The notes: generated by a model not told the origin, from the letters alone. DNA of 64,000 nucleotides from a virus (IMGVR_UViG_3300045988_145635); one strand, 5' to 3'. Shown: positions 5,092-25,752, counted from the first letter of the stretch. Numbers and translations are program-made.

Positions 5092-5146
5092 TCTGATATG
5101 GCCGCATGATCGGCCATATTGTGTTGATAAAAAACAAGGATGAAAA

Positions 5147-5428: not shown

Positions 5429-5430
5429 TT

Positions 5431-6045: not shown

Positions 6046-6148
6046 CAAATACCTTTATTTAAAGGATTGCCTGTTAATTTCTATTTAGCACCTTTTCATT
6101 TTTGAAATAATTGCACCATTAAACAAATCTTTTCTTAATGGTGCAATT

Positions 6149-7834
6149 ATGAATACAGCTCTTTCCATCATCGACGATGCCAACTCAAACACTGCTATCG
6201 ATTATCGTCAGGAAATGAACGTCATCCACGAAATTGTGGCCGAGTGCGAGAAGGAGATCGCCTTCATGTATCAGGTTCACGACTTCGTTTATGGAGACGA
6301 ACGCCACAACATGATTAATCGCCTGCTGCAACTGAACCACCGACCAGATGAAGAACGCTCACGTTTGAATCGAGCTTGGCTGGATAAAGTCGATCTGGAA
6401 TGGGTGAAACAGAATATTTGGGCCGAGTACTGGAGGAAGGTCACGGATATGACTAACGTTCTGCTGATCATGCCAGCTTCCCGTCGCGACGAGTGGCGTG
6501 AGCAGTTTATCGAGGGTAAGCAGGAAGTCATCAAAACTGACAGAACCGGCTATCAGATGAAGGTAAAAGAGTTCGTTGGTGTACCGGAGTTCAAAGCAGA
6601 AACGGTCATACCCACGATGCTTAATTTGCTGAATGACAGGCACAAATATCTCTCTGAGCGCGTGTATGGCTTGTTTAAGGCGCTGAGTCCTGCGCACAAG
6701 ACAAATAAGACAAACGGTTTCAGCGAACGTCTGATAATCGCTGACTGCATTTCTGATTTCTGGCGGGACAGCGTTAGTGTGAACTATCGCAAAGAGGACT
6801 ATATCGACGATCTGCGTGTCTTGCTTCATTTCTTCGCGCACAAAGAATTTATTACCATCAACCGCACTGCTGAGGTGCTATCAGCTGCGTATCGGGCAAA
6901 CGACTGCCAGACCGGTGACTGGATGAACGTCGATGGAAATCTGATGCGCGTGAAGATGTTCAAGAACGGCAACGTTCACTTTGAAATACATCCTGACGTG
7001 GCCTGGAAGTTGAATGAGGTGCTGGCTTACAGTATGCCTGCTGCAATCCCCGCGCCATGTCGCACCGCGCCAAAAACACGGGCACCAAAGCAGTTCGGGT
7101 TAATCCAGAAGACGATCTCCGTGCCGGTTCGCACTGCGCTTCGTGACGGGCGATTGAGCAAAGACAAAGGCGTATGGTACTTCTCTGATTCAGCTCTCCA
7201 GAAGTCGCAGGTGGAAGAGCTTGAGCGCACACTGAGCTTCATTGGCGGCGTGCAGGAGAAAAAGCACTGGCAGTTCCCGTATGACATCGTCCATACGCTA
7301 AATACGATTGTGGCTACCGGTTTAATACCGGATACAAAATCACACCAGTTCTACCCTACCCCACGCTTGATTGCTGAGTACGTTGCCAGAGCCACTGAAT
7401 TGAAGCCTGGTGAGAAGCTGCTGGAGCCTCAAGCCGGACGTGGGGATCTTCTGGCCTATATTAACGCCGATCTGGAAGATGTTACCTGCATAGAAATCGC
7501 ACCTCTCTTCGCTGATATCCTGCGTGGAAAAGGGTATACGAACACGATTTGCTGCGACTTCATAAAGTGGTCTGAGGACAACGTAGGTTATCAGTTCGAC
7601 AAAATCGTTATGAACCCGCCGTATTCGCTTGGTCGTCATAGAGAGCACACGCTGGCTGCGCTGGGGCATCTGAAAGTCGGCGGGCGTCTTGTAGCAGTAT
7701 TGCCGGGCACTGCGCCAATACTGGACTGGATGACGATGGATAATTACGTTTATGCCAGAGGGAAGTCGTTTACCAACGAGTTTGAAGACACAGGGATCAC
7801 AGTCAGCGTATACGTTTTCAAACGCGTTAAATGA
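6149..7834 (+). CDS. DNA methyltransferase, gamma-class N6-adenine type, with ~340-aa N-terminal domain of unknown function
   Basis: C-terminal motifs in gamma order: FYPTP (motif X), LEPQAGRGDLL (motif I), IVMNPPYS (motif IV). Confidence 0.7.
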   Translation: MNTALSIIDDANSNTAIDYRQEMNVIHEIVAECEKEIAFMYQVHDFVYGDERHNMINRLLQLNHRPDEERSRLNRAWLDKVDLEWVKQNIWAEYWRKVTDMTNVLLIMPASRRDEWREQFIEGKQEVIKTDRTGYQMKVKEFVGVPEFKAETVIPTMLNLLNDRHKYLSERVYGLFKALSPAHKTNKTNGFSERLIIADCISDFWRDSVSVNYRKEDYIDDLRVLLHFFAHKEFITINRTAEVLSAAYRANDCQTGDWMNVDGNLMRVKMFKNGNVHFEIHPDVAWKLNEVLAYSMPAAIPAPCRTAPKTRAPKQFGLIQKTISVPVRTALRDGRLSKDKGVWYFSDSALQKSQVEELERTLSFIGGVQEKKHWQFPYDIVHTLNTIVATGLIPDTKSHQFYPTPRLIAEYVARATELKPGEKLLEPQAGRGDLLAYINADLEDVTCIEIAPLFADILRGKGYTNTICCDFIKWSEDNVGYQFDKIVMNPPYSLGRHREHTLAALGHLKVGGRLVAVLPGTAPILDWMTMDNYVYARGKSFTNEFEDTGITVSVYVFKRVK

Positions 7835-7895
7835 TAGGTAAATACTTACCTAATTTGTGTAAGAATGTAGTTACTAAACGATAAGAGAAAAACAC

Positions 7896-8600
7896 ATGAA
7901 CAACCTCCAGTTAGAGCATTTTAACGTCACAGGCCATTCTGATTTTCCTTTCAAGTTTACATTGAAAGGTTATGCAGAGGATGCGGTAGGCCAGATCATT
8001 ATTGATAAAGGCATCGTTAAGTTTGAGGGGGATTTTGATGAATCCGCGAAAACATTCATAGACTTCGTTGCCAAACGTTGGAGCGAGCAATGGAAAAACC
8101 TGGAAAAGCGCGCCAATGAGTTTGATCGGTTCATGGATGCAATGGATACAGCAAAAGAGGCTCTTGATGCCGGGACTCCGTTAGATCTGGAGTCACTTTT
8201 CAACGGCGAAGTGGCCTCTGCGATGTTTGCCACCATGTTCGCGGGTGAGTTCGTCCGCAGCGGTGCCAAAAACTACCTTGAGCTGGATTACAACGTCCCT
8301 GCAATTGGCGATTTCGTCGTTACCATCCAACGCAAAGAAGGTAAGACGCCAGGTGAACGCGTCGCAGAGCTTGAGGCCGTTGTGGATCAGCGTAACGGAG
8401 AGTGTGACCGTTTGATCAACGAGCTTCATGCACTTCGGGAAGAAAGAATATGCGCGGGTAGTAATACACGTAATGCAGCGGATATCTACTTCCAGTTAGT
8501 TGAGGAATGCCAGATTCCACCAGGTGGCTCTCTTGTCGATTACGTAAGACATTTAATGGCGGAAGTTAGCTCCAGCCATAAAGATGGTGAGGTGCGCTGA
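7896..8600 (+). CDS. Hypothetical protein
   Basis: 234-aa ORF; motif B site upstream (7833-7854). Confidence 0.5.
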   Translation: MNNLQLEHFNVTGHSDFPFKFTLKGYAEDAVGQIIIDKGIVKFEGDFDESAKTFIDFVAKRWSEQWKNLEKRANEFDRFMDAMDTAKEALDAGTPLDLESLFNGEVASAMFATMFAGEFVRSGAKNYLELDYNVPAIGDFVVTIQRKEGKTPGERVAELEAVVDQRNGECDRLINELHALREERICAGSNTRNAADIYFQLVEECQIPPGGSLVDYVRHLMAEVSSSHKDGEVR

Positions 8601-8980
8601 TGTTTGGCATTGACGCACAGCGTATAGCCGCTTTTGCAAAAAGCCCTCTTGATAATCCCTTGTCTCGTAGTGAGCAAATGGAGCTGGCAAGGCTTTTTCT
8701 TCACATTCAAAAACAGGCAGACATTTTCAATAACATGCCTAATCAACCTATTCTGGATGGTCACATCCAGATGGTCATTAACAGTCATGAGAAAGGCTGG
8801 GCTGCAATCGTCCCCAGCACAATTACATACAAGTTGGCGAAAGAGGTTCAAGAGTTTCGAAAAGCCAGTGTCGAATCTGAGTCTACCAAAGCCGCAATAA
8901 ACACTCTTATTCGCATGGGATTCACATGGAACGGTGGAGCCTACTGGCAAGCACCTCACCCCATTTTATCCGGCAATTAG
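8600..8980 (+). CDS. Hypothetical protein
   Basis: Start overlaps upstream stop (TGATG); 126 aa. Confidence 0.5.
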   Translation: MFGIDAQRIAAFAKSPLDNPLSRSEQMELARLFLHIQKQADIFNNMPNQPILDGHIQMVINSHEKGWAAIVPSTITYKLAKEVQEFRKASVESESTKAAINTLIRMGFTWNGGAYWQAPHPILSGN

Positions 8981-9035
8981 ACGCTACAAATCCTTCTGCG
9001 TGAATAAATAAAGGCCATAAGTTGTGGCCTTAAAT

Positions 9036-9091
9036 AAATTGTTTTCTGCCTTTTCTTATTTGTGAAAATAACCACAACTAGAAAACAACGG
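9036..9091 (+). promoter_or_regulatory. Conserved promoter/operator module (TTGTTTTCTGCC ... GAAAACAA half-sites)
   Basis: ~45-bp module shared with 17143-17210 and 21217-21262, lying directly upstream of a start codon. Confidence 0.5.
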
Positions 9092-9099
9092 AGTTAAGA

Positions 9100-9741
9100 A
9101 TGTCTAGTATTTCCGAAGCACATATGTTCGCCGCTGGCGCTCATGGTGGCGTTGGTCAGAAAAGAAAATATACCGGCGAAAACTACATCAACCACCCGGT
9201 TGCTGTCCGAGAGATTGTTGCATTGCATGACGGAACCGTGGAGATGCAAATCGCGGCGCTTCTGCATGATGTGGTCGAAGACACCCATGTAACCATAGAG
9301 ATGGTTCGTGATCACTTCGGTGAGCGCGTAGCTGAAATGGTTCAGGCTCTGACCAACATTGCAAGGCCAGAAGACGGCAATCGAATACAGCGTTTCATCA
9401 TCAATGTCCGGGAGCTGGAGCAAAATCTCGACATGCAGACGCGCATGATCAAGCTGGCTGACCTGCTCGACAATACCTCTTCTATCGTGAGTCGCGATCC
9501 TGAGTTTTCAGCTATCTACCTTGCAGAGAAAGAGCTGATGCTGGACGTACTTTTTAACGGGAAGGAGATTGGTGCCAACGCTGATGTTGTCGAGTACATG
9601 GAGAGGATAGGTATAGAACACCCGTTGTTATTAAGCGCAAAGGCGAAAGTCACTGAAGGTATTGCGCTTCTGAAACCGGTACACATCAAACGTTATGAAA
9701 AACACAAATCGCTGATCTGGAGCGCGTGGGAGGCTGCATGA
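9100..9741 (+). CDS. HD-domain small alarmone hydrolase-like protein (RelA/SpoT hydrolase fold)
   Basis: HPVAVREIV ... AALLHDVVEDT matches the (p)ppGpp-hydrolase HD signature; 213 aa single-domain size. Confidence 0.65.
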   Translation: MSSISEAHMFAAGAHGGVGQKRKYTGENYINHPVAVREIVALHDGTVEMQIAALLHDVVEDTHVTIEMVRDHFGERVAEMVQALTNIARPEDGNRIQRFIINVRELEQNLDMQTRMIKLADLLDNTSSIVSRDPEFSAIYLAEKELMLDVLFNGKEIGANADVVEYMERIGIEHPLLLSAKAKVTEGIALLKPVHIKRYEKHKSLIWSAWEAA

Positions 9742-10280
9742 AGGTCGAAAAAATAGATGTTCTTTCCTTTGTGCTGACGGATCTGGAACGCCTCGATCCG
9801 GTTCGAGTGATGATTGAAAACTACGAACCTGGTAAGGGAAGAATCACCATCACCTGCTACGGAAAAGCGTGGACTGCGGCTTGGTTTGCTATGGGCGGTG
9901 ATGATGTGCAGACGTTCATTAAGCGAGTTAGCAACGATTATCTAATCGACAATTTCGACCCTCAACTGCTAAGCACGGTCGACGATGACAACGATGCAAA
10001 TCTGCTTTTCGTAAAGTCAGAAATCATAAAGTTACGAAGAGAGAGAGAAATAGACGCCGTACTGGCTCGCGAAATGTGGGACGAGGCGGAAAACGCCGAT
10101 GACGTAAAAGAAAGCTGCTGTTGTTTCGGCGTCGGTAACAAACTGCTGAATCTCTTTGGTGATGATCCGTGGTATGCCGACTGGCCAACGGTACCAAACC
10201 CGAAATACCAGTATCTGGAACGCATTGTGAACGCGGTACGTGAAGGGCTGAAAGAGTTAGATAAGTTAGAGGCATCGTAA
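9738..10280 (+). CDS. Hypothetical protein
   Basis: ATGA overlap with upstream gene, GGAGG RBS. Confidence 0.5.
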   Translation: MKVEKIDVLSFVLTDLERLDPVRVMIENYEPGKGRITITCYGKAWTAAWFAMGGDDVQTFIKRVSNDYLIDNFDPQLLSTVDDDNDANLLFVKSEIIKLRREREIDAVLAREMWDEAENADDVKESCCCFGVGNKLLNLFGDDPWYADWPTVPNPKYQYLERIVNAVREGLKELDKLEAS

Positions 10281-10723
10281 TGAGAGAGAAAATCAAGAAC
10301 CCGGTCGTCGTATTGTATAAACGGGAAACCAGCGATTCTTATGCGGTATCCATCACTGATGGAAGCCAGAACATGCACGATGGTCTGCTAATGGCCTCCG
10401 TATCTCCTGATGATTCTGACTACCCTTTCGCCACTTTCGCTATGGTTGGTTACTACATGGCTGCCGAAATTGAGAAGTTGCGTGTTGAGCTGGAGACCGT
10501 TAAACAGCGGGAAAAGGATCTGTTTATGGAAAATGTTCGACTTAAGTCAGGTATAGCAGGTCTGATACACCTCGGTATTCGATATGCGGATGTCGAAGTC
10601 ATGAAAATAGCTGGAGATGCCCAGCTTTCTACTCCCTGTACTGACAGCATCATAAACAGTATTGCATCAGGCGTTTTCACCAAAGAGGGTCAGCATGATG
10701 AGAACAGTAGAAGTTCGCGCTGA
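10280..10723 (+). CDS. Hypothetical protein
   Basis: TAATG overlap with upstream gene. Confidence 0.5.
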   Translation: MREKIKNPVVVLYKRETSDSYAVSITDGSQNMHDGLLMASVSPDDSDYPFATFAMVGYYMAAEIEKLRVELETVKQREKDLFMENVRLKSGIAGLIHLGIRYADVEVMKIAGDAQLSTPCTDSIINSIASGVFTKEGQHDENSRSSR

Positions 10724-10883
10724 AGATGTAATCCCAGGTGATGTGGTCATAACATCTAAAGGCAAACGATGTGCGGTTAAATCTTTCTGGATGGAAGGTG
10801 ACAAAGTGACTCTGTTCGGTACAGATGGTTCCGAAACGGATTATGACTACGACGAATTGCTTGTTGTTGAGAGAGCTATCTAA
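10695..10883 (+). CDS. Hypothetical small protein
   Basis: AGAGGG RBS before ATGATG; overlaps the end of the upstream gene. Confidence 0.4.
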   Translation: MMRTVEVRAEDVIPGDVVITSKGKRCAVKSFWMEGDKVTLFGTDGSETDYDYDELLVVERAI

Positions 10884-11536
10884 TGACCACCGTTAACAAT
10901 AAGAAATGCTACCCAAGCGAGAAATATCTTAATGAGCTGATCACCAACATTGAGTTTGCTGCAAGGGCACCAGTTGAAGTCGTGAGAGCGATTGCAGCAG
11001 AGCTACAGAAGCACCGTAAGGCCTATGCCAATACAGCAGCAACTAAGGATGGTTGGATAAGCTGTAGTGAGCGAATGCCTGTAATTGGCGAGCTAAATTG
11101 GAGAACTAGTTTTCCTTTACTGGTTACGTGTGAGATCGGCGTTATACCTGCTTATTACGGCTTTGTGAGCGTTAATGGTGATAGGCATTATGGCTTTATG
11201 GAGAGTCTTAAATACGGAGACGATAACGGCAACCATCCTCAAACTAATGAATATGGTCTGATTAGCAATGTCACACACTGGATGCCACTACCAGAACGCC
11301 GCAGGAGTCGAACAGTGAATAAAGCAGAGTTATTTCAGAAAATATCGGCTCTCGCGACTGAATGCCACGCTATAGCATCTGAGCTTGATGTTGGCGATGA
11401 ACGAACCGAGATGTTCGAAATATACAGTGTGCTGCGCAATCTCTGTCGGCGTGGCTACGCCACTCAAGTAGGGCGAATGACTAACCCACTACTCTCATCC
11501 TGTGATGAGGATGACTCGGATGAGGATGACGAATGA
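10883..11536 (+). CDS. DUF551-like phage protein with acidic C-terminal tail
   Basis: WISCSERMP ... THWMPLPE resembles the DUF551 signature as I recall it; TAATG coupling. Confidence 0.45.
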   Translation: MTTVNNKKCYPSEKYLNELITNIEFAARAPVEVVRAIAAELQKHRKAYANTAATKDGWISCSERMPVIGELNWRTSFPLLVTCEIGVIPAYYGFVSVNGDRHYGFMESLKYGDDNGNHPQTNEYGLISNVTHWMPLPERRRSRTVNKAELFQKISALATECHAIASELDVGDERTEMFEIYSVLRNLCRRGYATQVGRMTNPLLSSCDEDDSDEDDE

Positions 11537-11916
11537 TGCATAAATCAGTAGCCGGTGAGTTTCAGAAGGAAGTCGATAATACCACTGATCTATTGGACGA
11601 TATTTTAAGCATTCTCGCGCTGCTTGAGGCTGGCGATTGGTCAGAACATTGCACTAAAACAGAGCTAGGCGGTCGGCTTGAAAGAGAGATTACACGACTG
11701 ATTAGCGATGCCCAAAATGATTTGTCACCTGAGCATCTCCCCTGCGATGTAGTTCTTGTGCCAGGGATGAGGATACACGAAGGCGTCAGAACGAAAACAT
11801 TATTAACCGCATTACAGAGAAGAGCCGAACTAAGCTCGCGGATAAAGTTGATGCCATCCAAAATATTTGATGTCGTCAAATTTATGCCATCGCAACATAC
11901 TGAGAGAGATAAATGA
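11533..11916 (+). CDS. Hypothetical protein
   Basis: ATGA overlap with upstream gene. Confidence 0.5.
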   Translation: MMHKSVAGEFQKEVDNTTDLLDDILSILALLEAGDWSEHCTKTELGGRLEREITRLISDAQNDLSPEHLPCDVVLVPGMRIHEGVRTKTLLTALQRRAELSSRIKLMPSKIFDVVKFMPSQHTERDK

Positions 11917-12539
11917 GCACGGTAGCGAAAGATCTCACAGAAGATATTCTCAATGAAATTATTGCTGGTGCAAATACCTCGCTTGAGCAACTTCTTGCGT
12001 TAGCACTGAGAGCCGAACGTCGAGACAGAAATCGTTTTTATGAGCGATTACCAGGGAAGCGACCAGATAGATCGGATGAAGAAGGTTGCGATATAGACTA
12101 CATGGAGCCTTCAGAGATTTATCAACTTGGTAAAGATGACGGCTGGAACGCTTATCACGATGCTGTGATGAAGTTGGATGAAAAAGTTAAACCTCTTTCT
12201 CGACCGGTAGATCACGGTTTCCGCGATAACTGCGAATGCTCTAGTTGCCAGACCACGGCCCGTATTTGTTCCGAATTGACAGATAAGTCCAGCCTAATCT
12301 ACGAAGTTAATGTAGGCGGTAATACATGGGTCGAATGCACAAGAGCTGCATACGTAAGAGCAAAAGACAAGGGTGAATTAACCAGAGTTGTTACCAATCA
12401 CCCAAATAATGAGCTTAAAGATCACCAGATTCGAGAACTGGTGAACGAGTTGAGAGATATTGCGGTTCAGTACCACGGAACGCAGCAATTGCGGGAGAAG
12501 ATTGCCAGAGCAGTGAACAACTCAGTCCGTAAAAAATAA
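11913..12539 (+). CDS. Hypothetical protein
   Basis: ATGA overlap with upstream gene; followed by a hairpin terminator. Confidence 0.5.
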   Translation: MSTVAKDLTEDILNEIIAGANTSLEQLLALALRAERRDRNRFYERLPGKRPDRSDEEGCDIDYMEPSEIYQLGKDDGWNAYHDAVMKLDEKVKPLSRPVDHGFRDNCECSSCQTTARICSELTDKSSLIYEVNVGGNTWVECTRAAYVRAKDKGELTRVVTNHPNNELKDHQIRELVNELRDIAVQYHGTQQLREKIARAVNNSVRKK

Positions 12540-12556
12540 GCAATAGTACGATAAAG

Positions 12557-12583
12557 AGGCCCCATGCTCTTGATGGGGCCTGT
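12557..12583 (+). terminator. Factor-independent terminator closing the left-arm operon
   Basis: AGGCCCCA-loop-TGGGGCCT stem followed by a T. Confidence 0.5.
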
Positions 12584-13304
12584 AGCAACTAGCGTTATGG
12601 ACGCTGGTTTACGTACTCAATGATCGCTTTGATAATCGCGAACATCGGCGGCACGATTTTGAACAGTAAGTTAACCATAACAGGCCTCACTTAGTTTTAT
12701 CGCGCCTAGCTGCAAATACCTTTGGGCTTGCCTTTGCAGTTGCAATATCTGTAGTCGCCAGATACTTACGGCACGATTTCGAGTTAAGGTAAGGTTTTAG
12801 AGTCACCAAAAACCTGGACTTAAATCTTCTTTGAGAACAACGATGTTTAGTAAATGGTCATTATTACCTGGTATGACCACTCAACGTTTCTTGATGAATC
12901 CAGTACATTCGGTTAATCTTAATTCAGTCGCCAGATACTTATGGCTCAGGAACAGAGCCGCAAACTCTGTTTCCTTTTAAAAAGCCCAGCCTAGTCAACT
13001 GGGCTTTTTAATGTCTATTTTTAACCCAATGAACCTTCAATACCGCAACATCAGTGTCTTGCGAATTAAGATAGTGTGTATAGGTTATGCATGCAAGTGC
13101 ATAACTCTGTGGATAACTCAGGAAGGAAAAAGTAGCTTCCGCGCAATTTAGGCCAGACAAGGCTTTCGCAAAAGTCAACAGAGAGAAAAAATTTGTTAAA
13201 AATAACGTTTGTTGGAATTGTATATATTTATGCCTTTCAATAGTTAGCATCTTATTAACATCTTTTTTAAGAGATAGAGTTCAAAAATATATAGCTTCAA
13301 CATA

Positions 13305-13324
13305 TACTGTATGTGTATACAGTA
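13305..13324 (+). promoter_or_regulatory. LexA (SOS) box
   Basis: TACTGTATGTGTATACAGTA fits CTGT-N8-ACAG; 17 nt upstream of the UmuD-prime-like start. Confidence 0.65.
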
Positions 13325-13340
13325 TTAAGAGGCGAGTATT

Positions 13341-13730
13341 ATGGGCTTCCCTTCTCCTGCGGCGGATTATGCTGAGAGCCGTATTTCTCTTGATCAGCAG
13401 ATAATTAGACATCCTTCAGCGACCTACTTCATGAGGGCAGCTGATAGTCATCATCGTGAGGGAATATTGCAGGGCGCATTGCTGGTGGTCGATTCCTCAC
13501 TTACCCCGGTTGATGGTTCTCTGCTTGTATGCGCTCTGGATGGGGAATATCGCGTAAAAAGATACCGGAAGTATCCACGTCAGCATCTGGAGGATTTAAG
13601 AACTGGTAAGAAGGAAGCATTGCCAAAGGATGACGATGGATGCACGGGCAGCAATGCCGTGTTTGGTGTGATCACTCACATTATCAACGACGCAAGAAGT
13701 GGCGAGTTTGATGATTGTCCTGTGATGTAG
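13341..13730 (+). CDS. UmuD-prime-like S24 peptidase-family protein (HumD-like, pre-truncated UmuD mimic)
   Basis: Begins MGFPSPAADY, i.e. at the position of the UmuD self-cleavage site; conserved Ser (ADS) and Lys (VKRYRK) positions; SOS box upstream. Confidence 0.7.
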   Translation: MGFPSPAADYAESRISLDQQIIRHPSATYFMRAADSHHREGILQGALLVVDSSLTPVDGSLLVCALDGEYRVKRYRKYPRQHLEDLRTGKKEALPKDDDGCTGSNAVFGVITHIINDARSGEFDDCPVM

Positions 13731-13767
13731 GAGAACTGTTTAGGTGGTGCAATGCACCACCTTTTTA

Positions 13768-14868
13768 TCACACTGCGCGGAATGCGATTTCGCCAGGTAT
13801 TACTTCACCTTGCCAATACATTTGGGCAGCAACGCGATCTGCGAGGTCACGATAAATAGCCGTAAATTCGCTATCTGGACGACTAATAACGGTTGGTGTT
13901 CCGTTATCCAGATCTTCACGAAGAGAGATATGAAGTGGCATTTGGCCTAACAACTGCGTGTTGTATTTCTCGGCCAGTTTCTGTGCGCCACCGGTGCCAA
14001 AAATTGGCTCGTGATGACCGCAGTTACTGCAAATATGCACACTCATGTTTTCGACGATACCCAGTACCGGCACTTCGACTTTTTCGAACATCACAATGCC
14101 TTTCTTCGCATCGATCAGCGCGATGTCTTGCGGCGTAGTTACCACAACCGCACCAGTTACAGGAATGTTCTGCGCCAGCGTCAACTGAATATCACCAGTG
14201 CCCGGCGGCATATCGAGAACGAGATAGTCCAGATCAGGCCATAGAGTTTCCTGCAACATCTGCATCAGCGCCTTGCTGGCCATCGGTCCACGCCACACCA
14301 TTGCATTGTCGTCGGTGACCAGATAACCAATAGAGTTGGTTGCCAGGCCATGAGACATGATAGGTGCCATGTGAGTACCGTCCGGTGAGGTTGGACGTTG
14401 GTTTTCCGCGCCCAGCATGGTTGGAATTGATGGACCATAGATATCGGCATCCAAAATACCAACTTTCGCACCTTCAGCAGCCAACGCCAGTGCCAGATTT
14501 ACCGCCGTGGAGGATTTACCTACGCCGCCCTTGCCTGAGCTGACGGCGATAATGTTCTTAACGCCATTAATGCCTGGTTGGTTTTTGACGCGCTTAAGCG
14601 TGGCAATGTTGTACGACAGCTTCCAGTCAATAGCCTTTGCGCCAGTGATACGGAGCAGATCACCACTACATTGCTCTTTCAGGTCTTCAAAAGGCTTATT
14701 CCACACGAAAGGCATGATTAGTTCGACATGCAGTGTGTCATCCATCAACGCAACATGGTGTAACGCTTTAAGCGTAGTCAGGTTGTGTTTCAGGGTTGGG
14801 TGCTGAAAATTAGCCAGCGTACCGGCTACCATTGCTCTCAGGGCATCCGGCGATTTGGACTCGCTCAT
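13768..14868 (-). CDS. apbC: Fe-S cluster carrier ATPase ApbC (Mrp)
   Basis: 366 aa; Walker A SSGKGGVGKSS, CxxC (CSNCGH); near-identical over its length to enterobacterial Mrp as I recall it. Confidence 0.93.
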   Translation of the reverse strand: MSESKSPDALRAMVAGTLANFQHPTLKHNLTTLKALHHVALMDDTLHVELIMPFVWNKPFEDLKEQCSGDLLRITGAKAIDWKLSYNIATLKRVKNQPGINGVKNIIAVSSGKGGVGKSSTAVNLALALAAEGAKVGILDADIYGPSIPTMLGAENQRPTSPDGTHMAPIMSHGLATNSIGYLVTDDNAMVWRGPMASKALMQMLQETLWPDLDYLVLDMPPGTGDIQLTLAQNIPVTGAVVVTTPQDIALIDAKKGIVMFEKVEVPVLGIVENMSVHICSNCGHHEPIFGTGGAQKLAEKYNTQLLGQMPLHISLREDLDNGTPTVISRPDSEFTAIYRDLADRVAAQMYWQGEVIPGEIAFRAV

Positions 14869-15025
14869 CCCGTCTCCTTTATTTTAATTTGCGCAATTGT
14901 CGCCTTGTAGTGTACTCCAGCTACGACATTTAATCATTTATGAGAAATGCTGTTATCACATGGCAGACATAAGGCCATTTTGTTACTATCAAGCCCCTTT
15001 TCACTACAAAGAAGTAATGCCTACT

Positions 15026-17059
15026 ATGACCCAAGTCGCGAAGAAAATTCTGGTGACGTGCGCGCTGCCGTACGCTAACGGCTCAATCCACCTCGGCCAT
15101 ATGCTGGAGCACATCCAGGCTGATGTCTGGGTTCGTTACCAGCGAATGCGCGGCCACGAGGTTAATTTCATCTGTGCCGACGATGCCCACGGTACGCCGA
15201 TCATGCTGAAAGCGCAGCAGCTTGGTATCACACCGGAGCAGATGATTGGCGAAATGAGTCAGGAACACCAGACTGATTTCGCAGGCTTTAACATCAGCTA
15301 TGACAACTATCACTCGACGCACAGCGAAGAGAACCGTCAGTTGTCTGAGCTTATCTATACTCGCCTGAAAGAGAACGGTTTTATTAAAAACCGCACTATC
15401 TCTCAGTTGTACGACCCGGAAAAAGGCATGTTCCTGCCGGATCGTTTTGTAAAAGGCACCTGCCCGAAATGTAAAGCGCCAGATCAATACGGCGATAACT
15501 GTGAAGTCTGCGGCGCAACATATAGCCCGACTGAATTGATCGAGCCGAAATCGGTGGTTTCTGGCGCTACCCCGGTAATGCGTGATTCCGAACACTTCTT
15601 CTTTGATCTGCCTTCTTTCAGCGAAATGTTGCAGGCATGGACCCGCAGCGGCGCGTTGCAGGAGCAGGTGGCGAACAAAATGCAGGAATGGTTTGAATCC
15701 GGCCTGCAACAGTGGGATATCTCCCGCGATGCGCCTTACTTCGGTTTTGAAATTCCGGACGCGCCGGGCAAATATTTCTACGTCTGGCTGGACGCGCCGA
15801 TTGGCTACATGGGTTCCTTCAAGAATCTGTGCGACAAGCGCGGCGATACCACCAGCTTCGATGAATACTGGAAGAAAGACTCCACCGCCGAGCTGTACCA
15901 CTTCATCGGTAAAGATATTGTTTACTTCCACAGCCTGTTCTGGCCTGCCATGCTGGAAGGCAGCAACTTCCGCAAGCCGACCAACCTGTTTGTTCACGGC
16001 TATGTGACAGTGAACGGCGCGAAGATGTCCAAGTCTCGCGGTACCTTTATTAAAGCCAGCACCTGGCTGAATCATTTTGACGCCGACAGCCTGCGTTACT
16101 ACTACACTGCGAAACTCTCTTCGCGCATTGATGATATCGATCTCAACCTGGAGGATTTCGTTCAGCGCGTGAATGCCGATATCGTGAACAAAGTGGTTAA
16201 CCTGGCCTCCCGTAATGCAGGCTTTATCAACAAGCGTTTTGACGGCGTGCTGGCAAGCGAACTGGCTGACCCGCAACTGTACAAAACCTTTACTGATGCC
16301 GCTGAAGTGATTGGCGAAGCATGGGAAAGCCGCGAATTTGGTAAAGCTATCCGTGAAATCATGGCATTGGCTGACCTGGCTAACCGCTATGTCGATGAAC
16401 AGGCTCCGTGGGTGGTGGCGAAGCAGGAAGGGCGCGATGCCGATCTGCAGGCGATTTGCTCTATGGGCATTAACCTGTTCCGCGTGCTGATGACGTACCT
16501 GAAACCGGTACTGCCGAAACTGACTGAACGTGCAGAAGCATTCCTGAATACAGAACTGACCTGGGATGGTATCCAGCAACCGCTGCTGGGCCATAAAGTG
16601 AATCCGTTCAAGGCACTGTATAACCGTATCGATATGAAACAGGTGGAAGCACTGGTGGAAGCATCCAAAGAAGAAGTGAAAGCCACAGCCGCACCGGTAA
16701 CTGGCCCACTGGCTGACGACCCGATTCAGGAAACCATCACCTTTGACGACTTCGCCAAAGTTGACCTGCGTGTGGCGCTGATTGAAAACGCGGAGTTTGT
16801 TGAAGGCTCTGACAAACTGCTGCGTCTGACACTGGATCTCGGTGGGGAAAAGCGTAATGTCTTCTCAGGCATCCGTTCTGCTTATCCCGACCCACAGGCA
16901 TTGATTGGTCGTCACACCATTATGGTGGCTAACCTGGCTCCGCGTAAAATGCGCTTCGGTATCTCCGAAGGCATGGTGATGGCTGCTGGCCCCGGCGGGA
17001 AAGATATCTTCCTGTTAAGCCCGGATGCTGGTGCTAAACCTGGCCACCAGGTTAAGTAA
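15026..17059 (+). CDS. metG: Methionine--tRNA ligase
   Basis: HIGH motif (ANGSIHLGH), KMSKS motif, zinc knuckles CPKC/CEVC, C-terminal tRNA-binding domain; start chosen at [11 protein letters not shown] (the ORF-track start at 14897 is an upstream extension). Confidence 0.96.
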
Positions 17060-17079
17060 TTAAACAACCTCTGTTCGCA

Positions 17080-17106
17080 ATGCCCGGCAACACGCTGGGC
17101 ATTTTC
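17080..17106 (+). terminator. metG terminator
   Basis: ATGCCC-loop-GGGCAT hairpin followed by TTTT. Confidence 0.5.
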
Positions 17107-17142
17107 ATATAGACACAATCCCTTCTGATTTACGCATACCCT

Positions 17143-17210
17143 AAAACAATTTGTTTTCTGCCTTTTGTTAATTGAGATAATAAGCCACATAAGAAAACAA
17201 ATTGTTTCGG
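17143..17210 (+). promoter_or_regulatory. Paired operator motif A sites (AAAACAATTTGTTTT and AAGAAAACAAATTGTTT) flanking a GATAAT -10-like hexamer
   Basis: Two palindromes 48 bp apart immediately upstream of the 17221 start. Confidence 0.55.
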
Positions 17211-17220
17211 AGTGGTTGAA

Positions 17221-17520
17221 ATGTTGAACATTACCCAAGCCTACCAGGTGGCATTGATCAGTTCATCTCATACATCAGAGGAAGATGCTCGTCGATTCAT
17301 GATCGCAAGCAATGAGCTGGATTGGGTTTCGCAAATTGACGGCGGTTGTATTGTCCACGCCGGGTTACAGGATGATGTCTGGAAAGACGACTTGCGTCGA
17401 TATGGTATATCCGAAGGCGCGATTGCTAACATTCAGAAAGTACTTGATGTAGGCTTTGACTCTGTACATTTTGATTGTGGTGCGCCGGTCGTTGAAGGGC
17501 TTGAGTGCTGGAACTGGTAA
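17221..17520 (+). CDS. Hypothetical protein
   Basis: ATG with GGAGTGG spacer; first cassette of right arm. Confidence 0.5.
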   Translation: MLNITQAYQVALISSSHTSEEDARRFMIASNELDWVSQIDGGCIVHAGLQDDVWKDDLRRYGISEGAIANIQKVLDVGFDSVHFDCGAPVVEGLECWNW

Positions 17521-17565
17521 CAGATATTAAAGCATTGGTAGTTTGTTTTTAGGATTATCAAAGAA

Positions 17566-18300
17566 ATGAAAAAGTTGAAAAGTTTAGAAATCCCTGGGAC
17601 TGGTTATAAATTCTTTATGGACAACGCGGAGTGTGCACCTAACGCGTTGGAAAAAATACAAAGTCTTATCAACAGCCTTACTGAAGAAGCGAAAGAACTG
17701 AAGAGCGAGGCGACAAAGGACAATACAGCTAAAATCCAATGCTTAAATCTCGTTTCTTATTGTTTATATCAAGTGTCCAAGACACTGATTAAAGGCAATA
17801 TCTATTACGACGATGAAGACACCTCGACACCTGAAGAAAAAGATAGCGATGAAGAACTCTATGAAGATATCTCTACTAGTGCGGGTCACGCTGCCTTCGA
17901 TGCTATGGGTAAATCGTCAGGCATCAGATCATTTGTTGAACAGAACAATTCGACAATAATGATTGAGTACTGTGAACAAACAAGCTCCAAGGCCATACAT
18001 GTTCTTCACGATGTTGCTGCAGGGGTTCGCTGTGAGGCTGAAGCGGTCAGAAAAGATGTATTTGGTGCAGACAGTAATACCGTGAAAGCGTTCATCAACA
18101 GTGCTCTGCTAAATTCTTACTCAAACCTTATCGTCAATGCGGCACTATGCGCAAATTCTGGTGAAGAACACATTGTCATAACCGAAACCAAATATGAGCA
18201 TCAACAGTCACCAACCATAGAAGAGGTAACTGCATTGGCTATCAAACAGGCGAGTGAAATTAGTGATGAAATTCTCTCTCTGCTAAACAAAACTAAGTAA
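17566..18300 (+). CDS. Hypothetical protein
   Basis: 244-aa ORF; no motif recognised. Confidence 0.5.
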   Translation: MKKLKSLEIPGTGYKFFMDNAECAPNALEKIQSLINSLTEEAKELKSEATKDNTAKIQCLNLVSYCLYQVSKTLIKGNIYYDDEDTSTPEEKDSDEELYEDISTSAGHAAFDAMGKSSGIRSFVEQNNSTIMIEYCEQTSSKAIHVLHDVAAGVRCEAEAVRKDVFGADSNTVKAFINSALLNSYSNLIVNAALCANSGEEHIVITETKYEHQQSPTIEEVTALAIKQASEISDEILSLLNKTK

Positions 18301-18379
18301 AACATTGATAATGGCGGTCACAATTTGATTCTTTTCTATAAGAATCCGTTGATCGCCACTACTCCCCTTCCATGCCTGG

Positions 18380-19200
18380 AATCACATCCTTAAATATCAA
18401 TAGGTTACAGTTGTTTATACCAATAAGAAAACAACTGAATAACAGATCAACGAAACATCAACGCTTTCACCCGATTTGGTCTAAAAAATTGACGTTTTCA
18501 CACATCACTGCTTATACCCGTAATTCTACGCAGCAGACAGCGCCACAGCGTCCAATTTTCACCACAGACGACCCAACACACTACCAACAAAAACACACGC
18601 TCAAAATCGTTCCCGTTGCGTTACATAACCATATAAACAACTTATTTTCAGGAATAACAAAACAACTAAATAACACATATGCCATTCCCAAAACAACCAA
18701 CCTCTTTATGGCAGGCTACCGAAAAGACCCACCTCTTCTTCCCAGGCTACCGGACAACCAACCTAACTTTCACAGGCAATCCGAAAACATTCATACGCGC
18801 GATACCCACGACACGCCATTACCCAAACAACGAAGAAACACCTGAACCACTGAAACCCCAACGAAGCCTGTTACCGCAAGGATTCTCTCAATCCCAAAAG
18901 ACACGAAACATAACAATCACGGGAAACGCCATTACCCAATACACGAATAACTACAAAAGCCCTTCACACACTCCAGACAAACAACTCAAACACAATAACG
19001 AAAGGAATCGCCCACCTGCCATTACTCCATACACGGAGAAGAACAATCACCAAAACGACGAGAACACCCCATAGAAGAACCACCGCAAAACGAACGAAAC
19101 CACATACACCGACAGAGAGAACAACACACCCAATTCACCAACAGAAATAGTCGCCGTATAGAACGTTCTGGAAGGAGTGAGCATTAACGCCTATAGAGAG
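18380..19200 (+). other. ORF-poor, strongly strand-asymmetric A+C-rich tract (G- and T-poor on the plus strand)
   Basis: ~0.8 kb dominated by A and C; contains short repeated CAGGCTACCG-like and CCACCTCTT motifs; six-frame ORFs here translate to low-complexity sequence. Confidence 0.55.
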
Positions 19201-19360
19201 GTTGAAACAGATAAAACACGAAGAAAACACAACATGTATAGCGAAGAAGCCAGGTATGTATAAGTGGGGAGGGAAGGAGGGGTGTCGCCTCCTTTTTCGT
19301 ATTTATTCAACTCCTGATTTTATCCCCCGTAACACCCCTACGGTCAGCCTTCGGTCCATA

Positions 19361-19497
19361 CAGGGAAAAGGTTGCATCCCGCTACAGAAACGGCTGGGTT
19401 GCCTTCGGGGAACGGCTGGGGATTTTCAGGGAAACGGTCGAGTTGCCTGTGTGGATTTCGGGAAAAGGCTCGATGCCGGTTCAGGAACGGTGGCGTA
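19361..19497 (+). repeat. Iteron-like array: six ~22-bp-spaced degenerate repeats (GGGAAA[A/C]GG core)
   Basis: Cores at about 19363, 19386, 19408, 19429, 19460, 19483. Confidence 0.6.
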
Positions 19498-19854
19498 CCG
19501 GTATAGCGTGAGGGAGAGTTGCGGCTGTCCACCTGTAATGTGCGGGAAGAAGAGAGGCGCTCACGTGCAGGCGAACTTACTTACCGTTGGACTCCCTCTG
19601 AATGCCCAGCTACAGCGTAATTGTGCCAGACAGTCAGCGGGTCACAATCGATTTCAGTAGGTTTTCGGGGAGAGGATTATTCTGCCCACCAGCCACCTTC
19701 GGCCACTAAATCAGAATAATGTAAAAAGTGTACTCGGTACTGAACCTGAAAACTCACTGCCAAAACCACATTCACCGGAATAAAATCCTTTTTCGCCTGT
19801 GCGTTATTGCGATAATAACACCAACAAGAAAACATGTTGTTTAAGGATTGCTTT

Positions 19855-20184
19855 ATGTTTGCAAATATCGACATCAACCAAATCAAGAAATTAACTCAAA
19901 AAGAGTTTGATCAGTTTTATGAGTTAGAAGGTTGGTCTTCCACTCTGATCAATTCGCGGTGGGTGCTTGAGCTGATGACTCGTGATGACGCACCTGCTTT
20001 GATGATTTGCGACATGGGTGAAGATGCTGACTTTATGGATATGAGCGAATTTTGTGTGGACACATACAACCGCAGCCAGAAGTACTACTTCACATGCGAT
20101 AGCGAAAATGACGTGATTTCTAAGGTCTATCTTCACCTCGTCCAGCATTGGGACGTTCAGGAGTTTCTTGAAGTATTCGAGTAA
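19855..20184 (+). CDS. Hypothetical protein
   Basis: AAGGA RBS; operator motif A at 19825-19846; own terminator at 20193-20213. Confidence 0.5.
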   Translation: MFANIDINQIKKLTQKEFDQFYELEGWSSTLINSRWVLELMTRDDAPALMICDMGEDADFMDMSEFCVDTYNRSQKYYFTCDSENDVISKVYLHLVQHWDVQEFLEVFE

Positions 20185-20338
20185 CCCCAACCAAAGCCAG
20201 CATTGCTGGCTTAACTTAATCTGTAGCCGCAGGGAAGAACCTGCATATCGCCCATGCACCTGATCAATATGCTTTGTAGCCGTTTTCTTACTGGTATTAT
20301 TTACGCCATTGAGAAAACAAGTTGTTTACGGAGTTGTG

Positions 20339-20650
20339 ATGAAAAAATCATTGGTTCTTGGTCTGGACAAAGACCAGAAGAGAAAAGAGAAGCCTGCGCT
20401 GGTTGCTCAATTAACTTTGCTGGACATCGTTGCCAATGGAACCTCTATTCGTCTGTTCCGTGAAACGGCGGTGTCTTTCGATAAAAACACCTTTACTCGT
20501 TATGTAATGAATGTTCGTCGCCAGCGTGGAAAAGGCTGGGTGGCATTTCAAAGAATGTGGCCGGAACATCAGCTCGAACTGGCTTTGATGGAAGTTAACC
20601 GCGTGGCCCAGCAAGAAATTCAGAGAGCATCAGTGATGGCAATAGCCTGA
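20339..20650 (+). CDS. Hypothetical protein
   Basis: ACGGAG RBS; operator motif A at 20307-20333. Confidence 0.5.
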   Translation: MKKSLVLGLDKDQKRKEKPALVAQLTLLDIVANGTSIRLFRETAVSFDKNTFTRYVMNVRRQRGKGWVAFQRMWPEHQLELALMEVNRVAQQEIQRASVMAIA

Positions 20651-20777
20651 TAATGTGCAAGTGGTAATTAGTCGACAGTACGACAGCCCCGCCATCCTTA
20701 CGGGGCTTTTTTTGTATTGTAAGTACATACTTACGATCATAGAATATAAAAATAACCAAAACACTACGGAGAGTGAA

Positions 20778-21173
20778 ATGACCGTTAAACGCGAAAAACT
20801 GACAGTTGATGTTTACTATGCCTCTGAAACCGCCGAAGGTAAGAATGTGGCAAAAATCACCGTTGTTACGTACAACACCGAAACTGGCGCCGAAGTCCAG
20901 GCCAGTACGATCGTGCGTAAAGGTGATGCCTCCGGCGGCGAGTACGAGACTCAATACCAGTCTATTTTCGATGCAACTGACCCGCTGCTGCTGAAAATCG
21001 AGAACTACTTCCGCCAGGTTGATGAAGAGGTGTTTGAAACCATGATGAATATGGTTAACACCGTATTCGCCTCCAGCCTGAATACCAGCACCACCTGGAT
21101 TGGCCAGTACGGTCTGCGCATTACCTCTGGCATTCCTGCCGACACCTTAATCCCTGAAAGCGTATTCGCTTAA
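20778..21173 (+). CDS. Hypothetical protein
   Basis: ACGGAGAGTG spacer before ATG; terminator hairpin upstream (20683-20712) and downstream. Confidence 0.5.
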   Translation: MTVKREKLTVDVYYASETAEGKNVAKITVVTYNTETGAEVQASTIVRKGDASGGEYETQYQSIFDATDPLLLKIENYFRQVDEEVFETMMNMVNTVFASSLNTSTTWIGQYGLRITSGIPADTLIPESVFA

Positions 21174-21290
21174 TCCTCTTTAAATGGCGCGTAAACCGCG
21201 CCATTTTCTTATACCCGATAACAATTTGTTTTCTGCCTTATCTGATTTGTGAAAATGATTTCACTGAAGCAACTTAATAAGGAAACCATC

Positions 21291-21665
21291 ATGGGACTTG
21301 ATATCTATATCGAGACACAGCCTAAAAACGATCTGAATAACGAGGCATCCAGAAAGCGGGTTGCTTACTTCTGTAAGTTCAATGCGCTCGTTGGGTGGAT
21401 GGAGCGCAACGTAGGTGAAGTCGAAAATTGTGAGCTTTTAGAATTAACGATGAATGACATTTGTCTTCTGAAAGCTCATTTGATGCACATAAACGAAAGT
21501 AATTGCGAAGAGTACTTGCCTACTCGGGAAGGTTTTTTCTTCGGCAGTCAGGAGTACGATGAAGGTTACTGGCATGATGTGGGGGAGTTGAAAGAGCTTG
21601 TGGAAGATCTGATTAAGAACCACGACTTTCACAATAACAGACTGACCTTCTGCGCCTGGTGGTAA
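21291..21665 (+). CDS. Hypothetical protein
   Basis: AAGGAAACC RBS; conserved promoter module upstream (21217-21262). Confidence 0.5.
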   Translation: MGLDIYIETQPKNDLNNEASRKRVAYFCKFNALVGWMERNVGEVENCELLELTMNDICLLKAHLMHINESNCEEYLPTREGFFFGSQEYDEGYWHDVGELKELVEDLIKNHDFHNNRLTFCAWW

Positions 21666-21666
21666 A

Positions 21667-21810
21667 TATGGGCGATTTCAAGAAACGCCTGAAGGAAAGA
21701 GCCGAGATGGTCAGAAAGCAAAACGCCTCTTCTGTCATCAGATACGCAAGGCAGTTTAGTCGCAACAACAAATCAGTTGAGGAAAAGATCCTTAGCGTAA
21801 TCGTGCGATA
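21667..21810 (+). CDS. Hypothetical small basic protein (47 aa)
   Basis: ATG 2 nt after the upstream stop; followed by AAGGCCACC-loop-GGTGGCCTT terminator. Confidence 0.3.
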
Positions 21811-22014
21811 ATTATTAAGGCCACCAGCATTGGTGGCCTTAAATGACCATCCTGTTTCCCGCAGGCTAAAACACCAACCTCTTACCTCCAGGCAACCGAC
21901 AAACCCACCTGTTCCCGTCCGGCTACCGCAACTTTCCACTTTGACGCCTTATTCGTACAACGATAATTAACACCAACAAGAAAACAATTTGTTATTTACG
22001 ATAAGGAATTAATC

Positions 22015-22497
22015 ATGAATTTTATCGCTACTGTAAACGCACCCGCACATGGCAATATCGCTGTAACGTTCTCTGACATTGAAAAACGAGTACTTGGTGC
22101 ATGGCGCGACAATGAGACGGTAGAACTGTCAGCACAAGAAAAATGCATTATTGCACGCGACATCATTGGCAATCGTCGTTACTCGCGGGTATTTGAGAAA
22201 GCGTATGTGGTAAATTCTGGATTCGGAACGTTCGTCTTTCCGGTGCGCTCCGGGCGATTCTGCCAGTCCAAGTTGATTGAGTTCGCTACGCAGATTTCTG
22301 TCTGGATTAAAACTCAATCGTCGTTCAAATTTTCCGACGATGAAGCAGTATCGCAGGGGATGCGGATCGCCAACAATGCAATTAAATGCAAAAACATTAC
22401 GTATACCGCTGGCGTTGATACATGGAAACTGTTTTGCGCTAACTTTATGCTGAATGTATACGCAAGCAACCGCATCCACATCCTTGATGGCGTGTAA
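22015..22497 (+). CDS. Hypothetical protein
   Basis: Operator motif A at 21977-21997; terminator hairpin at 22505-22528. Confidence 0.5.
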   Translation: MNFIATVNAPAHGNIAVTFSDIEKRVLGAWRDNETVELSAQEKCIIARDIIGNRRYSRVFEKAYVVNSGFGTFVFPVRSGRFCQSKLIEFATQISVWIKTQSSFKFSDDEAVSQGMRIANNAIKCKNITYTAGVDTWKLFCANFMLNVYASNRIHILDGV

Positions 22498-22546
22498 CTG
22501 AGAAGAGGGCCAGAAACGGCCCTTTCTCTATAGCCACCAGCTGCCG

Positions 22547-22626
22547 CAGGGAAATTTTCAGAAACGGCAAGGAACGCATTCATGAGCCGACGGGAAACGG
22601 CCAGGATTTTTTCGGGAAACGGCTGC
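22547..22626 (+). repeat. Second iteron-like cluster (GGGAAACGG / CAGAAACGG cores)
   Basis: Three to four repeats of the same core as 19361-19497; palindromes TAATCACATACGTGATTA and TGTGATTATGTGAAAAATCACG follow at 22760-22830. Confidence 0.5.
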
Positions 22627-23114
22627 ATTCGCCTTTGTGTAGAAAAAAACATCGGGAAGCTGGTGGAATCCAACCAGCGGTTGTCGGACAGGTGAGCGGG
22701 GAAAATTATGATGACTTTCGTCGCCTGAGACATCCAGATTTCTTTCGTAGCATAATCACATACGTGATTAAGTGGTGTGATTATGTGAAAAATCACGCGC
22801 ACATAATACGCGAGCGGATACGGAACAAAACAAAATGCCGATCCGCGCCGACAAATAAACGCGGATCATAAAGCAAGACTAAAAGCCAATGATTAACCAT
22901 ACACCATAACGCAATATAACGCGTTTTAAGCGCGTTAATGCGCTAAGTAATGGGTATATACTGGTAAGGATATAAAAGCTCGTCTGTGGCGTTATTTTGG
23001 CGCTTATTTTTATGTTGTTGGAGTGAGTCAAAGACAATAAAAAAAGCGCCATCATTGGCGCGTTATGGTGGAAGTATTGGAAACGAAAAAAGCGCCCATA
23101 GTGGGCGCTCGATT

Positions 23115-23351
23115 TTATTTATGTAAACTGATTTCAAATCCCATTTCTACAAACGCTTTTAACATTAAAAATATATCAGCGTCATTCACGTCTGCTTTTT
23201 TTCGCTCCTGGTCGCTCAATAAGTCAATTTTGCGCGTCGTTTCATCTATAAGCTCGACTGCGCGCCCAGCGTAACCAGCGATCCCAGCGATGCGATTAAC
23301 ATAATATTCGTTATGGACGTTAACGCCAGCGATAAGAACAAACATGATCAA
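23115..23351 (-). CDS. Hypothetical small protein
   Basis: ORF bracketed by GCGCCCATAGTGGGCGC hairpins. Confidence 0.4.
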   Translation of the reverse strand: MIMFVLIAGVNVHNEYYVNRIAGIAGYAGRAVELIDETTRKIDLLSDQERKKADVNDADIFLMLKAFVEMGFEISLHK

Positions 23352-23365
23352 GCTCCTTAAAAAAA

Positions 23366-23569
23366 TTAAATAGAATTTTGAAGTTTTCCGATTAATGCGC
23401 TTAAACGTAAGTATTCACGTTTGCGCTTGCAATCTCGCTTGCTGTTAAGCAAATCAGAAAACGTAAAATTTAATTGGTCGCGTTGCGCGATCAAATCATC
23501 GATTAATTCCAGTTTATAAGCGCGATACTTTGCGCGATATTCCGCGCGGATCTTGTCATAGCTGACCAT
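23366..23569 (-). CDS. Hypothetical small basic protein
   Basis: 67-aa ORF, AT-rich. Confidence 0.4.
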   Translation of the reverse strand: MVSYDKIRAEYRAKYRAYKLELIDDLIAQRDQLNFTFSDLLNSKRDCKRKREYLRLSALIGKLQNSI

Positions 23570-23616
23570 TTTAAAGCTCCTTTAAAGCGCCCATAGTGGG
23601 CGCTTGATTCCATTAA

Positions 23617-24848: not shown

Positions 24849-24864
24849 ATCAATATCCTAAAAC

Positions 24865-24916: not shown

Positions 24917-24923
24917 CATACAT

Positions 24924-25220: not shown

Positions 25221-25223
25221 AAC

Positions 25224-25748: not shown

Positions 25749-25752
25749 ATCA

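Follow-up and report, generated by a model that had tools for sequence, protein, structure and literature searches.

How do two housekeeping genes of the enterobacterial chromosome come to lie inside viral DNA? The question is raised by a stretch of 64,000 nucleotides (nt) from a virus (IMGVR_UViG_3300045988_145635; the whole of it is called the window here), in which apbC (mrp), encoding an iron-sulphur (Fe-S) cluster carrier, and metG, encoding methionyl-tRNA synthetase (MetRS), stand divergently between two arms of phage-like DNA. A reading made from the sequence alone had offered two accounts, which it held to be inseparable from the window by itself: either two related elements, or two parts of one rearranged element, flank a chromosomal locus, or a phage-plasmid-like element has captured the gene pair as cargo. 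The two accounts separate cleanly once reference sequences are compared. Very probably, the window comes from a single Escherichia phage-plasmid of the SSU5 supergroup, similar in type to Cyrano/pLF82 and pWPMR2, which carries a captured host apbC-metG segment. An essential translation enzyme on a phage-plasmid is unusual, and a phage-plasmid metG has been linked to the survival of antimicrobials by epidemic lineages of Shigella sonnei, according to the summary given in PMC12452169. Because the core finding has already been published with the work on pWPMR2 metG, as that same source relates it, the feature is a known case of a known kind, correctly rediscovered rather than a new system.

Origin of the two arms and limits of the cargo

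In a megablast search of phage records, window positions 1-20000 matched Escherichia phage CMS-2020a and Escherichia phage Cyrano with 91-94% coverage and ~97% identity, with partial and remoter matches to Salmonella phage SSU5. Local BLAST against the complete 108-kb Cyrano record (OV696614, joined from three pieces) aligned Cyrano 76798-108379 with window 1-32679 and Cyrano 1-30332 with window 32680-63012 at 96-99% identity (~98% overall), and the order is kept over 1-63012 except for three short divergent or unmatched blocks. The window therefore spans the ends of the packaged Cyrano genome, which fits a circular plasmid form. Positions 12000-18000 are 100% covered by circular E. coli plasmids of 105-120 kb at 97-99% identity. 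SSU5, the prototype of the group, maps onto the window in part, at 67-87% nucleotide identity, the backbone being syntenic to the left and to the right of the cargo.

The gene content points the same way. Taking over gene names from the Cyrano annotation, window 32814-60701 corresponds to the terminase, portal, capsid, tail, tail fibre, holin and endolysin genes, and plasmid partition genes are found at 61987-62655 (ParA) and 29426-30792 (ParB-like genes). RepA of Cyrano (60633-61688) and an integrase-like gene annotated in Cyrano fall in the part of that genome that lies beyond the window's coverage. The element would thus be a temperate siphovirus maintained as a low-copy circular plasmid; Cyrano itself is the plasmid pLF82 of E. 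coli LF82, an SSU5-like phage-plasmid that makes siphovirus particles, is SOS-inducible (39-fold by ciprofloxacin) and is present at ~5.5 copies per cell (PMC9928086).

Both cargo genes are intact, divergent and close to their enterobacterial counterparts, as had been read from the sequence. MetG is 98.7% identical in amino acids (aa) and 93.6% in nucleotides to the enzyme of E. coli K-12, with the same HLGH, KMSKS and four zinc-binding cysteines (C-x2-C ... C-x2-C); the Pfam domains tRNA-synt_1g, Anticodon_3 and tRNA_bind are all matched, and solved structures of E. coli MetRS match it at E = 0. ApbC is 94.5% (aa) and 81.8% (nt) identical to K-12 Mrp, retains the deviant Walker A motif GKGGVGKS and a C-terminal CxxC (CSNC), and is identical to Mrp over its central ~200 residues. 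The MetRS and ApbC of Cyrano are each 100% identical to the proteins of the window; the Cyrano annotation names the latter 'septum site-determining protein MinD'. The final ~47 nt before the metG start codon are Escherichia-like (89-91%), and the rest of the intergenic region resembles a Citrobacter-type arrangement (77-79%). A promoter scan of 12500-17300 gave sites not above those in shuffled sequence, and no consensus promoter in the apbC-metG intergenic region; at gathering thresholds, an Rfam search of the entire window gave no match.

The edges of the cargo are sharp. When 16 kb around the K-12 mrp-metG locus (b2113-b2114) were compared, homology was limited to window 13772-17060, at 88% identity. 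On the left, homology to each chromosome examined starts at the apbC stop codon, and on the right it stops just past the metG stop; the window lacks yehE and yehF, which adjoin the locus in the chromosome, and lacks the terminators found there. The K-12 locus shares the divergent order, the motifs and the protein lengths (ApbC being 3 aa shorter), but differs in the length and sequence of the intergenic region. The cargo is thus a 3.3-kb piece of enterobacterial chromosome set in the accessory region of the element and cut almost exactly at the apbC and metG stop codons. The range 12540-17210 given for the locus by the sequence-only reading contains this cargo but is too wide, as its first 800 nt (12540-13340) are non-coding and the next gene (13341-13730) is humD-like.

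At the left junction, a GC-rich hairpin with a T-run, probably a bidirectional terminator, lies between humD and the apbC stop. At the right junction, the terminator-like hairpin past metG was unmatched in 80 enterobacterial chromosomal loci, and it is followed by a promoter/operator-like element that aligns upstream of SSU5_104 (Table 1). SSU5 has neither apbC-metG nor humD at this site, and the right-hand junction aligns with the intergenic region between SSU5_103 and SSU5_104; nothing in SSU5 corresponds to window 10254 to 18305. Repeats of 18 nt or longer are absent from the two sides of 13768-17110, the window contains no tRNA, integrase or att-like repeat, in agreement with the earlier reading, and the open reading frames flanking the cargo are, by Pfam, humD-like and DUF5983 rather than an insertion sequence (IS) or integrase. 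Since no IS, integrase or att site marks the junctions, we infer that the capture was probably a single illegitimate recombination.

Neither arm is chromosomal: by comparison with K-12, both consist of phage-plasmid DNA. That they share repeat families, first noticed in the sequence itself, is borne out by the counts. The motif GAAAACAANTTGTTT has 22 matches (~13 sites), with 1.45 expected; its sites span 3760-9032 and 17142-61937, with none between 9100 and 17140. The operator-like palindromic motif AAACAAnTTGTTT, probably the predicted binding site of an element-encoded regulator, is often paired around a GATAAT-type -10 element (for example at 17140-17209), an arrangement that is kept upstream of SSU5_104. 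A near-perfect palindrome of ~55 nt (CCTGCTTCTGTATATAT...ATATACGGAAGCAGG) occurs at 1287-1343, 32642-32698 and 63946-64000, with 0.02 matches expected. Its copies are spaced by ~31.3 kb and stand at module boundaries (past the Dam-type methylase gene, before the small terminase gene and past the partition region); coordinate 1 of Cyrano falls at the exact centre of the second copy, and a homologous copy is present in SSU5.

Such repeat families on both sides, in a window that has no integrase or att site, could also be expected of a chromosomal apbC-metG locus lying between two related prophages or between halves of a rearranged element. We consider this extremely unlikely. In one circular plasmid of 105-120 kb, as in Cyrano, the cargo and its two arms form an unbroken stretch, chromosomal homology ends at both stop codons with yehE and yehF missing, and the allele is found in none of 5424 chromosomal metG places. 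The repeats stand on both sides of the cargo because both arms belong to a single element.

The allele count comes from 5426 complete E. coli genomes, in which metG has 5424 matches on chromosomes, at 90-95% identity, and 220 on plasmids. Records at 95-99% identity number 218, which matches the plasmid count, so that no chromosome appears to carry the plasmid-type allele; the phage-plasmid metG is present in ~4% of these genomes. In PLSDB, 208 records match; coverage of the segment is 80% or more in 201 of them, and 203 are predicted to be non-mobilizable. Altogether, the segment sits at the same site in ~200 plasmids, which are 105-128 kb in size and come from E. coli, Shigella and E. albertii. 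A MetRS match of any kind is rare in phage records (26 of 50,697, several of them only a few kb long), and among these matching records four E. coli SSU5-like elements bear the present metG.

Table 1. Features of the window around the captured segment and in the two flanking arms (positions in nucleotides of the window).
Feature	Position	Strand	Basis or remark
Left arm: early and accessory region of the phage-plasmid	1..13340	+	Collinear with Cyrano 76798-89310, 96-98%, partly with SSU5; not chromosomal. Contents: Dam-type methylase, RNase H, DUF4942 protein, lambdoid ea22/ead-like genes, 800-nt non-coding stretch
LexA (SOS) box CTGT-N8-ACAG, immediately before the humD-like gene	13307..13322	+	Sequence TACTGTATGTGTATACAGTA, near-consensus
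humD-like S24 peptidase gene, P1-type, left neighbour of the cargo	13341..13730	+	Pfam Peptidase_S24
GC-rich hairpin and T-run between humD and the apbC stop	13742..13762	.	Terminator scan; not common to the chromosomes examined
apbC/mrp, intact captured host gene (P-loop ATPase, Fe-S cluster carrier)	13768..14868	-	366 aa; Pfam PF10609, E = 2e-102
Native divergent intergenic/promoter region of apbC and metG	14869..15025	.	157 nt
metG, methionyl-tRNA synthetase, full-length dimeric form, captured, intact	15026..17059	+	677 aa; Pfam
Terminator-like hairpin past metG	17081..17106	+	Conserved also in the S. sonnei and Salmonella plasmids
Promoter/operator-like element with two AAACAAnTTGTTT copies, right insertion edge	17140..17209	+	Aligns upstream of SSU5_104
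Right arm: remaining phage-plasmid	17212..64000	+	Collinear with Cyrano 93191-108379, then 1-30332. Contents (Cyrano annotation names): DUF5983 gene, small early genes, UvsW-like helicase, ParB-like genes, terminase, head, tail, tail fibre, lysis genes, AtaT-like toxin-antitoxin pair, ParA
Operator-like palindromic motif AAACAAnTTGTTT	3760, 4489, 9032, 17142, 17193, 18635, 19828		Intergenic
Operator-like palindromic motif AAACAAnTTGTTT, further sites	20313, 21217, 21980, 32734, 32759, 61937		Intergenic
GNAT toxin, AtaT-like, full-length	60870-61391	-	~70% identical by eye to PDB 6GTS/6AJM
DUF1778-type antitoxin, adjoining the GNAT toxin	61399-61707	-	

Selection on the cargo and exchange with host chromosomes

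Both genes evolve under strong constraint. Against K-12, metG has a non-synonymous divergence (dN) of 0.0067 and a synonymous divergence (dS) of 0.33, and apbC a dN of 0.035 and a dS of ~1.6, giving dN/dS of ~0.02 in each case. Among phage-plasmid copies, apbC varies by 16-30 nt (22-30 in the remoter pairs) with 0-1 aa changes, the Cyrano and p1444_3 copies being the same; metG varies by 19-77 nt, and the window's MetG differs by 3 aa from that of p1444_3. The low dN/dS, together with so few amino acid changes within the lineage, indicates that both genes have been constrained while on the element.

The segment might instead be a neutral hitchhiker that only offers homology to the chromosome, where RecA could integrate the element or from which the metG region could be transduced. 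That the segment recombines with the chromosomal copy is clear, as set out below. However, a dN/dS of ~0.02 over dS of 0.3-1.6, with 0-1 aa changed per 22-30 nt, is not neutral, and none of the 5426 complete E. coli genomes has a chromosome with an integrated copy. This explanation is accordingly highly improbable.

The two genes have diverged from the host to very different extents. In a sliding window, identity to Escherichia is 89-97% over metG and 75-89% over apbC, with the switch ~47 nt upstream of the metG start. The ratio of apbC to metG dS is 4.9 between the phage-plasmid and K-12 and ~2 between two Escherichia chromosomes, and the GC content at third codon positions (GC3) of apbC is 0.52 rather than ~0.62, with metG at the chromosomal value. 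Among 80 enterobacterial species, the best nucleotide identity for metG is 93.6% (E. coli). Separate donor genera for apbC and metG were considered and dropped, as neighbour-joining (NJ) bootstrap analysis placed both genes next to Escherichia (metG 100%, apbC 77%), with a much longer branch for apbC; what this placement leaves to be claimed is unequal divergence and conversion, not two donors. One chromosome, CP170191.1, titled Enterobacter hormaechei strain B56, has a metG with zero synonymous or non-synonymous difference from K-12 and is probably mislabelled.

Traces of exchange with the chromosome are visible in two relatives. The S. sonnei plasmid p1538007_2 (CP104415.1) has the same humD-apbC-metG order as the window, at 97.3% nucleotide identity over a 3.4-kb segment, and like the window's group it belongs to rep_cluster_488, is ~107 kb in size and is predicted non-mobilizable. 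Together with pWPMR2 it falls into one SSU5-supergroup clade that is also found in E. coli clonal complexes (CC) CC131, CC23 and CC73 (bioRxiv 10.1101/2025.09.12.675607). Its genes upstream of humD differ from those of the window, and its metG differs by 71 nt and 9 aa, including a tract of ~500 nt with the K-12 allele: over metG nt 333-828 it has the K-12 state at 32 of the 34 sites that differ from the window, and outside this tract its divergence from K-12 is as great as that of the window copy.

In the SSU5-like Salmonella enterica plasmid CP053410.1, apbC-metG occupies the corresponding site of the backbone, has identical boundaries and precedes the same terminator and operator element. 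The two coding regions are only ~83% identical to those of the window, and the left neighbour is not humD. Over region 8001-11450 of this plasmid, the coding regions are 97-100% identical to a Salmonella chromosome, and the intergenic region is nearer to Citrobacter than to the Salmonella reference. The same site and the identical boundaries make replacement of the allele far likelier than an independent capture. We also considered whether this plasmid has kept an ancestral phage-plasmid intergenic region and rejected the idea, the two plasmid intergenic regions being only 62-70% alike and each nearer to Citrobacter.

The simplest reading of these comparisons is that the genes have long resided on the element and that the host copy has overwritten metG again and again; gene conversion from the host chromosome appears to refit the cargo to each host genus. 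Three elements of this pattern are possibly new, namely a metG much nearer to Escherichia than apbC is, the ~500-nt K-12 tract in S. sonnei and Salmonella-type alleles at the same site. Taken with the strong constraint on apbC, they suggest a continuing exchange of sequence between cargo and host chromosome, and they make apbC as worthy of attention as metG.

Possible benefit to the lysogen and to the phage

Judged from their sequences, the MetRS and ApbC copies look functional and have their own promoter region, in an accessory region free of the element's operator motif. If gene dose tracks plasmid copy number, as published work in part suggests, a lysogen would receive extra functional MetRS and extra ApbC, and more of either protein, or of both, may change host physiology to the lysogen's benefit, the published phenotype being antibiotic survival. 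According to Tam et al. (medRxiv 10.1101/2024.10.27.24316207), as summarised in PMC12452169, plasmid-borne metG drives antimicrobial survival in S. sonnei; the phage-plasmid pWPMR2 carries metG in multiple, variable copies, and its expression produces a subpopulation predisposed to acquire cephalosporin resistance. In addition, published work has found chromosomal metG to be hit recurrently by tolerance and persistence mutations, which makes MetRS dosage a plausible lever. In RNA sequencing (RNA-seq) of LF82, apbC is transcribed ~9-fold over the local background of the element and has been classed as a moron (PMC9928086), and ApbC appears to be, beside MetRS, a selected cargo expressed in lysogeny.

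Several observations weigh against parts of this account. In LF82 RNA-seq from stationary phase in lysogeny broth (LB), the metG signal of Cyrano is low, only slightly over background (~16, compared with ~92 for apbC and ~148 for humD). The plasmid MetG has none of the laboratory alleles for tolerance or persistence (G263S/S264F, a deletion of 569-572 and a frameshift near 630; PMC11004401); it looks like a normal enzyme, and its sequence leaves unexplained both how an extra normal copy would give tolerance and in which direction the effect would run. For apbC, a search for a donor in the 80 enterobacterial species reached at best 82.7% nucleotide identity, and none of the representatives of ApbC protein clusters is closer than 95% in amino acids. 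Finally, an extrachromosomal state of this particular copy would rest on its near-identity to circular plasmids, as the window alone cannot show it.

Second synthetase genes on mobile elements are known from plasmid ileS2/mupA, which confers mupirocin resistance, and from the synthetases of jumbo phages and giant viruses. In these cases, as with metG here, an essential translation enzyme is duplicated on a mobile element; unlike them, metG arrives with its chromosomal neighbour and promoter, and at 98.7% identity to the host enzyme it is not a drug-insensitive variant.

The cargo could also serve the phage rather than the lysogen, as auxiliary metabolic genes, with MetRS charging initiator and elongator Met-tRNA and ApbC supplying Fe-S clusters so as to boost translation and enzyme maturation in lytic growth. 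SSU5-like elements do hold tRNAs and many host-like metabolic genes, among them those for NrdAB, ThyX, DHFR and PolIII alpha, a few unrelated large phages encode MetRS too, and the strong purifying selection on apbC and metG would be expected here as well. Yet the segment has kept a promoter region of host type and lies in an accessory part of the element where the operator motif is missing, apbC behaves like a moron and is transcribed in lysogeny, and SSU5 and the Klebsiella relatives manage without the segment. We therefore regard such a role as unlikely, while giving it an appreciable chance; a benefit in lytic growth and one to the lysogen are in any case compatible with each other.

The right arm encodes a GNAT toxin resembling the proteins in PDB 6GTS/6AJM, which we take to be AtaT, next to its antitoxin. 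AtaT acetylates charged initiator Met-tRNA. The extra MetRS might then work together with the toxin, its dose setting the translation arrest that the toxin imposes and thereby forming a persistence switch. The toxin is full-length and close to the AtaT structures, and in phage records it is restricted to metG-bearing E. coli phage-plasmids; in LF82, toxin and antitoxin are expressed 35- and 60-fold over background (PMC9928086). However, the phage-plasmid-type toxin (at least 95% identity) occurs in ~96 plasmids, as against ~200 with metG, counts that rule out a tight linkage between AtaT and metG. A further 49 toxin copies at 90-95% identity are found in other records, with much larger plasmids among the rows sampled; PhiR41_1 has metG and no toxin match; and the co-occurrence of toxin and metG is confounded by shared ancestry. 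Such a switch is very unlikely, and we give only a slightly better, still slim, chance to the broader notion that MetRS and the AtaT-like toxin would both act on the Met-tRNAfMet pool, with plasmid copy number setting the fraction of arrested cells.

The left neighbour and variable stretches of the arms

The humD-like gene on the left of the captured segment is annotated as HumD family or S24 peptidase in plasmid records. Homology to phage P1 reaches up to 13720, and in P1 records the homologous region is annotated as LexA-regulated. Its homologue in Cyrano is the top-transcribed gene of the neighbourhood and is up under macrophage conditions, according to published LF82 RNA-seq.

Upstream of this gene, the 800 nt at 12540-13340 hold no convincing open reading frame and are partly P1-like, with a 20-nt direct repeat (at 12753 and 12926) and a terminator at 12988-13005. 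Cyrano has this stretch at 100% identity, and the S. sonnei plasmid lacks it. A permissive Rfam search of 12400-15100 returned only sub-threshold matches resembling antisense RNAs, at 12923-13012 on the plus strand (AgrB, with 27.6 bits against a threshold of 40, and RNAI), and the stretch, especially this part of it, may encode a small RNA.

On the right arm, tandem repeats of ~31 nt occur at 18691-18786 (three copies) and 21868-21932 (two copies), and from their sequence look iteron-like. The stretch that holds them shows an AT skew of up to 0.2 and a negative GC skew at 17-20 kb, and one plasmid record leaves much of it unannotated.

Variation relative to Cyrano falls in accessory hot spots that are divergent from or absent in that phage-plasmid, at window 9074-10474, 11711-12204, 24544-26775 and beyond 63012 (63012-64000). 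The first two of these blocks sit amid lambdoid ea22/ead-like genes, which also match Stx-converting phages.

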